The notes beneath the pieces are model-generated. The model was not told where the DNA came from. It was given only the letters and a program-made list of their open reading frames with translations, and made no database searches. 64,000 bases of DNA, from assembly GCF_003334785.1 (NCBI RefSeq), contig NZ_QOWV01000008.1, one strand, 5' to 3'. A program made the translations under genes and the position numbers. Position 1 is the stretch's first letter, and each line of letters begins with the position of its first letter. Below are positions 1 through 59,403 of this stretch, piece after piece. Source of the DNA: Escherichia coli. GTDB taxonomy: Bacteria > Pseudomonadota > Gammaproteobacteria > Enterobacterales > Enterobacteriaceae.

Positions 1-262
1 TTTTTCGTCTTGCGACGTTAAGAATCCGTATCTTCGAGTGCCCACACAGATTGTCTGATAAATTGTTAAAGAGCAGTGCCGCTTCGCTTTTTCTCAGCGG
101 CGCGGGGTGTGCATAATACGCTTTCCCGCTACAGAGTCAAGCATTTATTTTTGCTTTCTCTGCCGGAGTTCTCAGGAGAACCCCGCTGACCCGGCGGCGT
201 GTTTGCCGTTGTTCCGTGTCAGTGGTGGCGCATTATAGGGAGTTATTCCGGCCTGACAAGAG
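1..262 (-). promoter_or_regulatory. rrnC: rRNA operon tandem promoters P1/P2 and leader with boxA antiterminator; rRNA gene lies beyond window start (rrnC by context)
   Basis: Minus-strand reading gives P1 -35 TTGTCA (254..259) and -10 TATAAT (232..237), P2 -35 TTGACT (135..140) and -10 TATTAT (113..118), boxA TGCTCTTTAACAATTTATCA (56..75). Matches canonical E. coli rrn promoter/leader from memory; adjacency to yieP suggests rrnC. Confidence 0.8.
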
Positions 263-340
263 GAAATTTAAAATAATTTTCTGACCGCGCATTTTTTCAG
301 CAAAAGCCCCGTTAATGTGCCATAAAACAAGCAATTTGCC
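263..340 (-). promoter_or_regulatory. AT-rich UP element / Fis-binding region upstream of rrn P1
   Basis: AT-rich tract (aggaaatttaaaataattttctgacc) immediately upstream of P1 -35 on the minus strand; inferred from known rrn P1 architecture. Confidence 0.5.
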
Positions 341-411
341 GTTTTTGCAACCGTAATCACACTTCCTGGTGGCATACTAAGGAGGAATAAAAAGAAAAAG
401 GAAGATAAGTA

Positions 412-1104
412 ATGCCTTTAAGCGCACAACAGTTAGCTGCACAGAAAAACCTTTCGTATGTTCTGGCTGAGAAGCTGGCGCAACGGATCTTAAAAGGTGA
501 ATATGAACCCGGCACCATTTTGCCCGGTGAGATTGAGCTGGGCGAGCAATTTGGAGTGAGTCGTACAGCGGTACGCGAAGCGGTCAAAACGTTAACGGCA
601 AAAGGGATGGTTTTACCGCGACCGCGAATTGGTACTCGGGTCATGCCACAATCGAACTGGAATTTTCTTGATCAGGAATTGCTTACCTGGTGGATGACAG
701 AAGAGAACTTTCATCAGGTCATCGATCACTTTCTGGTTATGCGTATCTGTCTGGAGCCGCAAGCCTGCCTACTGGCAGCAACGGTTGGCACCGCGGAACA
801 GAAAGCGCATCTCAATACGTTAATGGCCGAAATGGCGGCATTAAAAGAGAACTTTCGCCGTGAACGCTGGATCGAAGTCGATATGGCCTGGCATGAGCAT
901 ATCTATGAAATGAGCGCCAATCCGTTTTTGACCTCATTCGCCTCGCTATTCCATTCGGTTTATCACACTTACTTCACGTCAATTACCAGCGACACAGTGA
1001 TAAAGCTGGATCTGCATCAGGCGATTGTCGATGCGATTATCCAAAGCGATGGCGACGCGGCATTTAAAGCTTGTCAGGCGCTGCTACGCTCACCTGATAA
1101 GTGA
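412..1104 (+). CDS. yieP: GntR/FadR-family transcriptional regulator YieP
   Basis: 230-aa ORF; N-terminal winged-HTH (GEQFGVSRTAVREAVKTL) and FCD-type C-terminal domain; synteny next to hsrA. Confidence 0.9.
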   Translation: MPLSAQQLAAQKNLSYVLAEKLAQRILKGEYEPGTILPGEIELGEQFGVSRTAVREAVKTLTAKGMVLPRPRIGTRVMPQSNWNFLDQELLTWWMTEENFHQVIDHFLVMRICLEPQACLLAATVGTAEQKAHLNTLMAEMAALKENFRRERWIEVDMAWHEHIYEMSANPFLTSFASLFHSVYHTYFTSITSDTVIKLDLHQAIVDAIIQSDGDAAFKACQALLRSPDK

Positions 1105-1126
1105 TAACCCGATAACAGGACATTGA

Positions 1127-2554
1127 ATGAGCGATAAAAAGAAGCGCAGTATGGCGGGTTTGCCGTGGATCGCGGCGATGGCCTTCTTCATGCAGGCACT
1201 TGATGCCACTATTCTTAATACCGCCTTACCCGCAATCGCTCATAGCCTTAATCGTTCTCCTCTCGCGATGCAATCAGCCATCATCAGTTATACGCTGACG
1301 GTGGCGATGCTTATTCCGGTAAGCGGATGGCTAGCCGATCGCTTCGGTACGCGTCGCATTTTTACCCTTGCCGTGAGTCTGTTCACATTGGGTTCTCTGG
1401 CCTGCGCACTTTCTAATTCGCTACCACAGCTGGTTGTCTTCCGGGTTATTCAGGGGATAGGCGGCGCAATGATGATGCCTGTTGCTCGGCTGGCCTTACT
1501 GCGCGCTTATCCTCGTAATGAACTTCTTCCAGTATTGAATTTTGTCGCCATGCCGGGTCTGGTGGGGCCAATTTTAGGCCCCGTTCTTGGCGGCGTGCTG
1601 GTCACCTGGGCAACCTGGCACTGGATATTTTTAATCAATATCCCCATAGGTATTGCGGGCCTTCTTTACGCGCGCAAACATATGCCCAATTTCACCACCG
1701 CACGACGCAGATTCGATATCACTGGCTTTTTGCTGTTTGGCCTCAGCCTTGTTCTCTTCTCAAGCGGAATAGAGCTATTCGGGGAAAAGATTGTCGCCAG
1801 CTGGATTGCCTTGACGGTAATTGTCACCAGCATCGGGTTACTGCTTCTCTATATTCTCCATGCACGACGCACGCCAAACCCATTAATTTCATTAGATTTA
1901 TTTAAAACCCGCACTTTCTCGATCGGTATCGTAGGCAATATTGCAACCCGTCTGGGGACCGGCTGTGTACCGTTCCTTATGCCATTGATGTTACAGGTAG
2001 GATTTGGTTATCAGGCGTTTATTGCTGGCTGTATGATGGCACCGACAGCGTTAGGTTCCATTATTGCAAAATCGATGGTTACCCAAGTCTTACGTCGTCT
2101 GGGCTATCGCCATACGTTAGTGGGGATCACGGTGATTATTGGGCTAATGATCGCTCAGTTCTCTTTGCAATCACCAGCAATGGCTATATGGATGCTGATC
2201 TTGCCGTTGTTTATATTAGGGATGGCTATGTCGACGCAGTTTACCGCGATGAATACCATCACACTTGCCGATCTGACCGATGACAATGCCAGCAGCGGTA
2301 ACAGTGTTCTGGCGGTCACGCAGCAACTGTCGATTAGTTTAGGCGTTGCTGTAAGTGCGGCCGTCCTTCGCGTTTATGAAGGAATGGAAGGCACAACGAC
2401 TGTCGAACAATTCCACTATACGTTTATCACAATGGGCATTATTACTGTTGCTTCAGCAGCAATGTTCATGCTTCTGAAAACAACCGATGGTAATAATTTG
2501 ATCAAAAGACAGCGTAAATCTAAGCCGAACCGCGTTCCATCAGAATCGGAGTAA
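1127..2554 (+). CDS. hsrA: MFS transporter HsrA (YieO), 14-TMS drug:H+ antiporter family
   Basis: 475-aa hydrophobic ORF with MFS motifs ([11 protein letters not shown]); synteny between yieP and rbsR. Confidence 0.9.
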
Positions 2555-3502
2555 GTTGTAATCGTTGTTGCTGAAGGGTCGGCTGGGTTATCCGATGGAT
2601 GAGTACATCAATCGCCAGCTCCCCCAGTTCATCTTTCGGTTGGTGGATAGTGGTTAATGGTGGCGTCATAAAGCTTGCCAGTTCGATATCGTCATAGCCA
2701 ATCACCGCGATATCCTGCGGAACCTGTAACTCTGCCTGATATAACGCCTGGTAAACGCCAACAGCCATAGCGTCATTTCCGGTAAAGACGGCCTGAGGAC
2801 GCAGCGGATGTGATAGCAGTTGGCGCATAGCGTCAAACCCGCCGTTAAATTCAAAATCACCAGTGACTTCATAGCCATCAGGAATGTTGAGACCCGCACG
2901 TTTCATCGCCGCCCGATAACCTTCCAACCGCAGGCGCGCCGGAGTTTTATCCAGCGGGCCGGTAATACAGGCGATACGGGTATGACCTTTATCGATCAGA
3001 TATTGCGTTGCTAAGTCTCCGCCCAGCAACGAGTTATCCTGAATAAGATCGCTGTCGCAGCCCAGTCCATCATCACAGTAGGCACTGTCGGATAACGTTG
3101 CATGATTTCACGCGAAGGTTGATGCGTTTCGGTGCACAGTAACAGCAAGCCATCAACGCGTTTTTGCATCAGCGTTTCCAGATTGCGATTCATCCGCTGT
3201 TCATCGCCTTCGGTATTGCAAAGGACGAGACTATAACCGCGTTCGAAGCAGCTGCGTTCAACGCCACGCACCAGTTCTGAATAGAAAGGATTGGTACTGG
3301 CAGTGATCAACATGCCAATGGTATGTGTTTGATTGAGTTTGAGGCTACGCGCCAGAGCTGATGGCGCGTAATTGAGTTCTTTAATCGCCGCTTCAACTTT
3401 GGCGGTAATCGCTTCACTGACGAAGCGATCTTTATTGATAACGTGAGAAACTGTTGAGGTAGAAACGCCCGCCAGGCGGGCAACATCTTTCATTGTAGCC
3501 AA
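2520..3502 (-). pseudogene. rbsR: rbsR, LacI-family ribose operon repressor, disrupted by frameshift
   Basis: Two overlapping ORFs in different frames: 3011..3502 holds the N-terminal HTH half ([23 protein letters not shown]...VMMDW, then out-of-frame tail [16 protein letters not shown]), and 2520..3029 holds the C-terminal half ([20 protein letters not shown]...MERGSA). In-frame upstream extension of the second ORF reads [15 protein letters not shown]. Consistent with deletion of about 10 bp (codons for P-F-D-G in the RbsR sequence as I recall it) near 3040..3045. Confidence 0.8.
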
Positions 3503-15734: not shown

Positions 15735-16010
15735 TCTACTGTGGATAACTCTGTCAGGAAGCTTGGATCAACCGGTAGTTATCCAAAGAACAACTGTTGT
15801 TCAGTTTTTGAGTTGTGTATAACCCCTCATTCTGATCCCAGCTTATACGGTCCAGGATCACCGATCATTCACAGTTAATGATCCTTTCCAGGTTGTTGAT
15901 CTTAAAAGCCGGATCCTTGTTATCCACAGGGCAGTGCGATCCTAATAAGAGATCACAATAGAACAGATCTCTAAATAAATAGATCTTCTTTTTAATACCC
16001 AGGATCCCAG
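15735..16010. other. oriC: chromosomal replication origin oriC
   Basis: DnaA boxes R4 tgtggataa (15740..15748), R3 ttatccaaa (15779..15787), R2 tgtgtataa (15814..15822), R1 ttatccaca (15920..15928). Three AT-rich 13-mers as reverse complements of GATCTnTTnTTTT (15942..15954, 15957..15969, 15973..15985) and an AT cluster (15986..15998). 14 GATC sites between 15725 and 16006. Sequence matches canonical E. coli oriC in reverse orientation. Confidence 0.97.
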
Positions 16011-26228: not shown

Positions 26229-26528
26229 GCGCGTGTGACCCGTCCTGAATAGCGTTCACATAGATCCTGCTGATATAAAACCCCCCTGTTTTCCTGTTTA
26301 TTCATTGATCGAAATAAGAGCAAAAACATCCACCTGACGCTTAAATTAAGGTACTGCCTTAATTTTCTGCAGACAAAAGGCGTGACGATGGTCGAAAATG
26401 GCGCTTTCGTCAGCGGGGATAATCCGTTATTGAACAATTTATCCTCTGTCCATTTCACGATGAAAAAAATGTAGTTTTTTCAAGGTGAAGCGGTTTAAAT
26501 TCGTTCTCAAATTACAGTCAGGACGCGT

Positions 26529-57999: not shown

Positions 58000-59403
58000 G
58001 TGTCACTTTCGCTTTGGCAGCAGTGTCTTGCCCGATTGCAGGATGAGTTACCAGCCACAGAATTCAGTATGTGGATACGCCCATTGCAGGCGGAACTGAG
58101 CGATAACACGCTGGCCCTGTACGCGCCAAACCGTTTTGTCCTCGATTGGGTACGGGACAAGTACCTTAATAATATCAATGGACTGCTAACCAGTTTCTGC
58201 GGAGCGGATGCCCCACAGCTGCGTTTTGAAGTCGGCACCAAACCGGTGACGCAAACGCCACAAGCGGCAGTGACGAGCAACGTCGCGGCCCCTGCACAGG
58301 TGGCGCAAACGCAGCCGCAACGTGCTGCGCCTTCTACGCGCTCAGGTTGGGATAACGTCCCGGCCCCGGCAGAACCGACCTATCGTTCTAACGTAAACGT
58401 CAAACACACGTTTGATAACTTCGTTGAAGGTAAATCTAACCAACTGGCGCGCGCGGCGGCTCGCCAGGTGGCGGATAACCCTGGCGGTGCCTATAACCCG
58501 TTGTTCCTTTATGGCGGCACGGGTCTGGGTAAAACTCACCTGCTGCATGCGGTGGGTAACGGCATTATGGCGCGCAAGCCGAATGCCAAAGTGGTTTATA
58601 TGCACTCCGAGCGCTTTGTTCAGGACATGGTTAAAGCCCTGCAAAACAACGCGATCGAAGAGTTTAAACGCTACTACCGTTCCGTAGATGCACTGCTGAT
58701 CGACGATATTCAGTTTTTTGCTAATAAAGAACGATCTCAGGAAGAGTTTTTCCACACCTTCAACGCCCTGCTGGAAGGTAATCAACAGATCATTCTCACC
58801 TCGGATCGCTATCCGAAAGAGATCAACGGCGTTGAGGATCGTTTGAAATCCCGCTTCGGTTGGGGACTGACTGTGGCGATCGAACCGCCAGAGCTGGAAA
58901 CCCGTGTGGCGATCCTGATGAAAAAGGCCGACGAAAACGACATTCGTTTGCCGGGCGAAGTGGCGTTCTTTATCGCCAAGCGTCTACGATCTAACGTACG
59001 TGAGCTGGAAGGGGCGCTGAACCGCGTCATTGCCAATGCCAACTTTACCGGACGGGCGATCACCATCGACTTCGTGCGTGAGGCGCTGCGCGACTTGCTG
59101 GCATTGCAGGAAAAACTGGTCACCATCGACAATATTCAGAAGACGGTGGCGGAGTACTACAAGATCAAAGTCGCGGATCTCCTTTCCAAGCGTCGATCCC
59201 GCTCGGTGGCGCGTCCGCGCCAGATGGCGATGGCGCTGGCGAAAGAGCTGACTAACCACAGTCTGCCGGAGATTGGCGATGCGTTTGGTGGCCGTGACCA
59301 CACGACGGTGCTTCATGCCTGCCGTAAGATCGAGCAGTTGCGTGAAGAGAGCCACGATATCAAAGAAGATTTTTCAAATTTAATCAGAACATTGTCATCG
59401 TAA
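58000..59403 (+). CDS. dnaA: chromosomal replication initiator DnaA
   Basis: GTG start at 58000 ([18 protein letters not shown]; 467 aa); Walker [11 protein letters not shown]; C-terminal DNA-binding domain. Confidence 0.97.

Follow-up and report, generated by a model that had tools for sequence, protein, structure and literature searches.

The window analysed here, a 64-kb stretch of Escherichia coli DNA, opens within sequence that resembles the promoters and leader of an rRNA operon, reading leftwards out of the window and lying back to back with the regulator gene yieP, while the rRNA and tRNA genes themselves fall outside it. This raises the questions of which of the rrn operons these promoters serve, whether the 16S gene indeed follows past position 1, and whether the rRNA promoter and the divergent yieP promoter have anything to do with each other.

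Assignment of the region to rrnC

We found that positions 1..411 of the window, read on the minus strand, make up the E. coli intergenic region between yieP and rrsC. The sequence 411..1 is identical to K-12 rrnC at 410 of 411 bases, and many natural E. coli isolates match it at 100% identity, which bears out the reading of the first-pass annotation that an rrn promoter and leader run leftwards out of the window. All 5,426 complete E. coli genomes contain matches to the same sequence, the median number of places per genome being 7, which points to the seven rrn operons. The sole difference from K-12 rrnC over the 411 nt is at window position 85, in the boxB loop, where the window has G and K-12 has A; G at this position is also found in the rrnA, rrnB and rrnG leaders and in the rrnC leaders of many other strains.

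That annotation had also proposed that the operon be assigned by aligning the leaders of all seven rrn operons, and the alignment gives rrnC. In the seven-operon K-12 alignment, P1, P2 and the entire leader starting at boxA, boxC included, occupy invariant columns, and positions 296 to 1 of the window are identical to rrnA at 296 of 297 bases and very close to rrnB and rrnG as well, so that these bases alone hardly discriminate operons and could be taken to favor promoters of rrnA, rrnB or rrnG. Upstream of about position 296, however, the window resembles rrnC alone among the seven K-12 operons: positions 411..301 match the rrnC flank at 111 of 111 bases, and none of the other K-12 operons matches at more than 34. 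At base 122, within the P2 spacer, the window has the A of rrnC where rrnA, rrnB and rrnG carry G, the flanking genes run yieP-hsrA-rbsR as annotated in the matching genomes, and the 64-kb window is colinear with K-12 as far as rrsC. The unique upstream flank, the synteny and the one diagnostic base collectively identify the operon as rrnC, and an assignment to rrnA, rrnB or rrnG, already refuted by the upstream flank, is extremely improbable.

Over its whole length the window is 99.97% identical to K-12 MG1655 3,877,729-3,941,738 in reverse orientation, from which it differs by 8 SNPs (positions 85, 4877, 12752, 31820, 39760, 43507, 51090 and 52862) and one 10-bp deletion. No genome in the collection matches the whole window exactly, K-12 being a very close relative. 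Within E. coli, positions 224..470 are at least 98.8% identical in all sampled genomes, which is too little variation for footprinting.

Window 1 to about 385 is thus almost certainly the control region of the rrnC rRNA operon on the minus strand, with the divergent yieP promoter in its upstream edge. We infer that P1, P2 and the leader function here as they do elsewhere from their identity with the rrnB and rrnC sequences. Few bacterial promoters have been studied as intensively as rRNA P1 promoters; the rrnC P1, P2 and boxA elements are textbook biology, already known and none of them new, and the finding matters only as correct annotation, although it does show that rRNA promoters are recognizable from raw sequence. 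The rrnC end also anchors the window as E. coli and K-12-like; from that end, oriC follows after about 15.8 kb, and dnaA is situated close to the opposite end.

Promoters and upstream elements

The promoter elements, all on the minus strand, are the following.

287..301, minus strand: putative Fis site I, GCTGAAAAAATGCGC, centred at -71 from P1
261..282, minus strand: P1 UP element, AGAAAATTATTTTAAATTTCCT, at -59..-38, identical to rrnB and rrnA
223..259, minus strand: rrnC P1 core promoter, with -35 TTGTCA at 259..254, a 16-bp spacer and -10 TATAAT at 237..232
223, minus strand: P1 start site, an A 292 nt before mature 16S, placed from the identical rrnB P1
141..159, minus strand: A/T-rich stretch upstream of P2, AGAAAGCAAAAATAAATGC, a UP-like element
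113..140, minus strand: rrnC P2 core promoter, with -35 TTGACT at 140..135, a 16-bp spacer and -10 TATTAT at 118..113

The hexamers agree with the consensus at 11 of 12 positions for P1 and 10 of 12 for P2 and are invariant in the seven K-12 operons, in keeping with the near-consensus minus-strand hexamers that had been read from the letters alone. The P1 sequence, including its G+C-rich discriminator (GCGCCACC, 231..224), is identical to that of rrnA, rrnB and rrnG P1. Between this discriminator and the P2 -35 the minus strand reads as a spacer of about 80 nt followed by an A-rich block. From what holds for rrnB P2, we take the P2 start site to lie near 105-106, and the stretch 141..159 presumably has a UP-like function.

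A consensus scan of positions 1..1500 returned exactly two sigma-70-like sites, 259..232 and 140..113, both on the minus strand. The generic sigma-70 hexamer scan is nevertheless not enriched over chance (2 sites against 1.5 +/- 1.2 in shuffles) and proves nothing alone; the identity of the promoters therefore rests on homology. The -10 hexamers of P1 and P2 lie 119 bp apart, and tandem rrn P1 and P2 promoters about 120 bp apart, with UP element, Fis sites, discriminator and control by ppGpp, are well described (PMC4696680). The UP element is the contact for the C-terminal domains of the RNA polymerase alpha subunits, and very high, growth-rate-dependent and ppGpp-sensitive activity is known for the identical K-12 promoters (PMC4696680).

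The candidate Fis site I agrees with the Fis consensus at 16 of 19 positions, ranks in the top 0.04% of the 15-mers of the window, and has a T-tract whose distance to the P1 -10 is constant in 40 species. Further upstream the matches to the Fis consensus are weak, and distal Fis sites are probable at 340..385, together with the yieP promoter. The rrn elements that had been placed within positions 1 to 340 are indeed there, but the end of the regulatory region is not at 340, since the yieP promoter and the probable distal Fis sites carry it on to 385.

Leader elements and predicted course of transcription

Downstream of P2, the leader carries the following elements; in coordinates relative to mature 16S, window position x corresponds to -(69+x).

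78..101, minus strand: boxB hairpin, with stems GCCGCU / AGCGGC and a 12-nt loop, as a predicted fold
63..75, minus strand: boxA, TGCTCTTTAACAA (UGCUCUUUAACAA), at -144..-132, invariant in the seven operons
41..50, minus strand: boxC, UCUGUGUGGG, at -119..-110, as defined in PMC10250234
20..59, minus strand: leader strand of the 16S leader-trailer helix, at -128..-89, with limits from PMC10250234 and including boxC
6..17, minus strand: leader hairpin hA, CGUCGCAAGACG, at -86..-75, a predicted stem-loop that fits helix hA of PMC10250234

The boxes follow P2 directly in the order boxB-boxA-boxC (101..78, 75..63 and 50..41), and the minus strand after boxA reads TCTGTGTGGG, then the CGTCGCAAGACG hairpin. 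The boxA antiterminator, which the first reading of the sequence had also recognized, is the loading site for NusB/NusE in the rRNA antitermination complex (PMC10250234), and its position fits two mutants of that study, a boxA deletion and the point mutant U-141. The seven K-12 operons do not differ in the leader strand of the leader-trailer helix. An RNase III cut is expected around 46-52, which fits the RNase III sites found 118-122 nt upstream of 16S in paralogous operons (PMC5371410). The fold of the leader as a whole is no more stable than that of shuffled sequences (z = -0.76), and given this value we used only those individual hairpins that fit published helices.

By the mechanism shown for the identical K-12 sequences (PMC4696680 for the promoters and PMC10250234 for antitermination), sigma-70 RNA polymerase would start at P1, at the A of window 223, and its recruitment would be strong owing to the UP element, bound through the alpha C-terminal domains, and to Fis at -71 and further upstream. 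The 16-bp spacer and the G+C-rich discriminator would make the P1 open complexes short-lived, so that P1 would respond to ppGpp/DksA and to the initiating NTP and come under growth-rate and stringent control, and P2, 119 bp downstream of P1, would provide basal transcription. The nascent leader would then expose boxB, boxA and boxC, of which boxA would load NusB/NusE; NusA, NusG, SuhB and S4 would join afterwards to form the rrnTAC, which would make the polymerase Rho-resistant and faster and aid the folding of the rRNA. The leader strand that bears boxC would later pair with the 16S trailer into a helix to be cut by RNase III.

Continuation into the rRNA genes

The 16S gene and the layout of the operon were checked by proxy, in relatives of this genome. 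In strain 6409, which is identical to the window over the 411 nt, 16S begins exactly 70 nt past window position 1, and the same holds for strain EC416, the closest over 25 kb. Downstream, strains 6409 and EC416, and K-12 as well, have the order 16S - tRNA-Glu - 23S - 5S - tRNA-Asp - tRNA-Trp, which is the rrnC layout. The first-pass annotation had placed the rRNA gene itself beyond position 1 and named its absence from the next 300 bp or so as the finding that would speak against an rRNA operon; in every genome inspected, 16S lies 70 nt away. We infer from these relatives that 16S is present in this particular genome too, in which case the sequence at +70 past window position 1 would presumably be AAATTGAAGAGTTTGATCATGGCTCAG.

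This bears on the possibility that the window holds an orphan promoter and leader remnant, the rRNA genes having been deleted or rearranged past position 1 in this genome. The window ends at -70, with 16S out of view, and the genome carries one private lesion, a 10-bp deletion in rbsR. A 701-nt probe running from yieP through the two promoters into the first 170 nt of 16S showed, at an 80% coverage criterion, an unbroken yieP–promoter–16S junction in 5,387 of 5,426 complete genomes of E. coli (99.3%), and the 39 genomes that lack a contiguous junction by this criterion allow for exceptions of this kind. Against such a loss speak the near-universal presence of the junction itself, the leader, intact and unmutated right to the window edge, and the closest genomes, which all have 16S at 70 nt. 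An orphan remnant is thus very improbable, and we read the promoters as those of a continuing rrnC operon.

Likeness to characterized systems

The closest known system is rrnC of K-12 MG1655 itself (3,941,328-3,941,807), with which the window shares the flanking genes and the order and spacing of Fis I, UP, P1, P2, boxB, boxA and boxC, and from which it differs only in the base at position 85 described above. The experimentally best-studied rRNA promoters, rrnB P1 and P2, are identical to the window from P1 -68 to the window edge, bar base 122, and share with it the UP element, the discriminator, the start region and the antitermination boxes. Upstream of -68, in contrast, rrnB is unrelated to the window, and the distal Fis sites therefore differ; moreover, the neighbor of rrnB is the co-oriented murI, whereas that of rrnC here is the divergent yieP. 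Of the seven operons, rrnC alone has been described as staying apart from the cluster that the other six form (PMC5110994).

The leader also bears comparison with the nut sites of phage lambda, where, as in rrn, the boxA RNA recruits NusB/NusE and then NusA and NusG to yield a termination-resistant polymerase (PMC10250234). The rrn system differs from lambda nut in its order boxB-boxA-boxC, in the lack of an N protein, in the participation of SuhB and S4, and in that boxB is dispensable (PMC10250234).

Rfam models at the gathering threshold matched nothing in positions 1..450, and at an E-value threshold the only match there was a sub-threshold one to Ysr197. The alignment of this family (RF02849, 'Yersinia sRNA 197') runs over its full length against 304..53 of the minus strand, scoring 83 bits (E = 3.7e-20), and could be taken to mean that a small RNA in its own right, of the Ysr197 type, is encoded here in place of a promoter and leader. 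The score is half of the gathering threshold, however (83 vs 167 bits), and the alignment begins upstream of the P1 start site. Additionally, the consensus of the model itself contains the P1 -10, the discriminator, the P2 -35 and -10, and boxA, and for this reason RF02849 appears to describe the promoter and leader region of Yersinia rrn operons, not a free-standing sRNA; read in this way, the alignment supports the rrn assignment from another genus. Among the alternatives to an rrnC control region, a small RNA gene is the one to which we give the least credence, which is next to none.

The divergent yieP gene and its conserved arrangement

To the right of the rrn elements, the following features are relevant to yieP and its arrangement with P1.

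412..1104, plus strand: yieP, an open reading frame of 230 aa encoding a FadR-subfamily GntR transcription factor
370..385, plus strand: yieP promoter, with extended -10 TGgCATACT at 370..378 and start site G at 385
334..348, plus strand: conserved block ATTTGCCGTTTTTGC, at P1 -111..-125 and yieP -51..-37, with 71% footprint identity

In DNA sequence, this gene does not differ from those annotated as yieP in K-12 and in strain 6409. The protein has the Pfam domains GntR (residues 18-77, 7.8e-19) and FCD (residues 108-226, 4e-21), which agrees with the GntR-family regulator that had been called from the sequence; with an N-terminal GntR winged helix-turn-helix and a C-terminal all-helical FCD domain, it belongs to the FadR subfamily. 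Its NCBIfam matches, to NanR, LldR and PdhR, are all under cut-off, and none of them gives an equivalog. The start site of yieP has been mapped by 5' RACE to 27 nt upstream of the ATG, which is window position 385, and the synteny of yieP with a 16S gene was reported in the same work (PMC11340327). We found no good -35 for the yieP promoter. The yieP and P1 start sites (385 on the plus strand and 223) lie back to back at 162 bp from each other, so that the divergent transcription of yieP from the same region, as claimed earlier, is confirmed.

The head-to-head arrangement is conserved well beyond E. coli. A degenerate pattern covering YieP residues 45-59, run against genome contigs, gave 102 loci, of which we used the 59 that encode a YieP orthologue with at least 200 nt upstream. 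An opposite-strand rrn P1 -10 with its discriminator was present at 58 of these 59 loci, 170-186 nt from the yieP ATG, and boxA was seen at all 29 loci with enough sequence. The genera with this arrangement include Escherichia, Klebsiella, Enterobacter, Serratia, Yersinia, Rouxiella, Sodalis and Morganella. Among 38 Enterobacteriaceae species with the GGCATACT -10 in common, the two -10 elements were 140 bp apart in 32 species, 141 in 5 and 139 in 1.

Mean pairwise identity among 12 Enterobacteriaceae genera, which we used as a footprint, was distributed as follows.

P1 core: 83%
UP element: 72%
Fis I region: 72%
yieP -10: 95%
interior segments between the two promoters: 41-46%

Gap columns numbered 2 in the inter-promoter stretch of about 140 bp, as against 14 of 38 columns in the yieP 5' UTR.

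The -10 elements are thus held 140 +/- 1 bp apart in 38 species despite an identity of only about 41-46% between them, and the arrangement extends to Yersinia, Serratia, Sodalis and Morganella. Both observations would fit a model in which the yieP promoter and rrn P1 form a coupled divergent unit, conserved across the order; the model would also have YieP bind rrn leader DNA. Taken as a whole, this model is a tentative lead that strikes us as improbable. If it were true, yieP expression would be tied to the activity of the rRNA promoter, through shared Fis sites or through transcription-driven supercoiling. The fixed 140-bp spacing could offer a cheap and testable handle on the influence of a strong promoter on its divergent neighbor.

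A candidate YieP site in the rrn leader

The part of this model that concerns binding by YieP draws on one candidate site.

49..63, plus strand: candidate YieP-operator-like sequence GATTGTCTGATAAAT, between boxA and boxC, an unverified lead

The motif derived for YieP from ChIP-exo has the high-information core atTTGTaTGAcaAAT (PMC7642389). Against the core pattern NNTTGTNTGANNAAT, GATTGTCTGATAAAT has zero mismatches and is the single such site in the 64 kb, where 0.23 would be expected, or about 0.0015 for the 411-bp region. Its match is comparable in quality to the sites at validated YieP targets, namely that of rydC, which agrees with the full motif at 14 of 15 positions (-15..-29), that of yohJ, and that of sdaC, which has one mismatch to the core. 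Against the full 15-mer, on the other hand, GATTGTCTGATAAAT is unremarkable, with 4 mismatches, a level reached by 15 sites in the window.

The candidate varies neither among the seven K-12 rrn leaders nor among the genera examined. Since the leader is kept for RNA reasons, this conservation is not independent evidence of binding. The unique yieP-proximal DNA at 224..411 holds no YieP operator, its best candidate having 3 core mismatches, and a comparable site is absent from the corresponding yieP-proximal DNA in every genus examined. We found no link between YieP and rrn operons in the literature searched. The rrn regions are prone to ChIP artefacts, and, should the site be real, YieP could touch the rRNA operons and its binding would be missed by ChIP pipelines that discard multi-mapping reads. 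The presence of GATTGTCTGATAAAT in every rrn leader could provide a handle on whether YieP, a metabolic regulator, contacts rRNA operons.

The rydC site is an observation in its own right. At K-12 1,491,521-1,491,535, 15-29 bp ahead of the 5' end of rydC, there is a near-perfect YieP motif, ATTTGTATGATAAAT (14/15). The paper that shows repression of rydC by YieP reported no known or predicted site by database search, and remarked on the absence of rydC from the ChIP-exo regulon.

Other features of the window

The origin of replication oriC is found at 15,764..15,995, where the 13-mers and the DnaA box TGTGGATAA can be read in the sequence. The rrnC promoters lie about 15.5-16 kb from it and point away, co-directional with replication. 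Two RNA families score above their Rfam gathering scores, STnc410 at 26,288..26,445 on the minus strand, in the atpC-glmU intergenic region, and AsdA, an antisense RNA inside dnaA, at 58,510..58,590 on the minus strand.

The rbsR lesion mentioned above is a 10-bp deletion (CCGTTCGATG relative to K-12) at 3058/3059, the only indel in the 64 kb against K-12 MG1655. It frameshifts rbsR into two open reading frames on the minus strand, 3011..3502 and 2520..3029, and does not occur in any of the 5,426 complete E. coli genomes. An 'rbsR22' allele appears in MC4100 genotype lists, with no link to the 10-bp deletion established.

Downstream of yieP, at 1127..2554 on the plus strand, lies the gene of an MFS transporter that is HsrA in K-12 and that RefSeq names mdtD in other strains. 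HsrA scores just above the cut-off of the NCBIfam 'MdtD' subfamily model (458.6 vs 426 bits); the naming of this paralogue, which is not part of the mdtABCD operon, is inconsistent.
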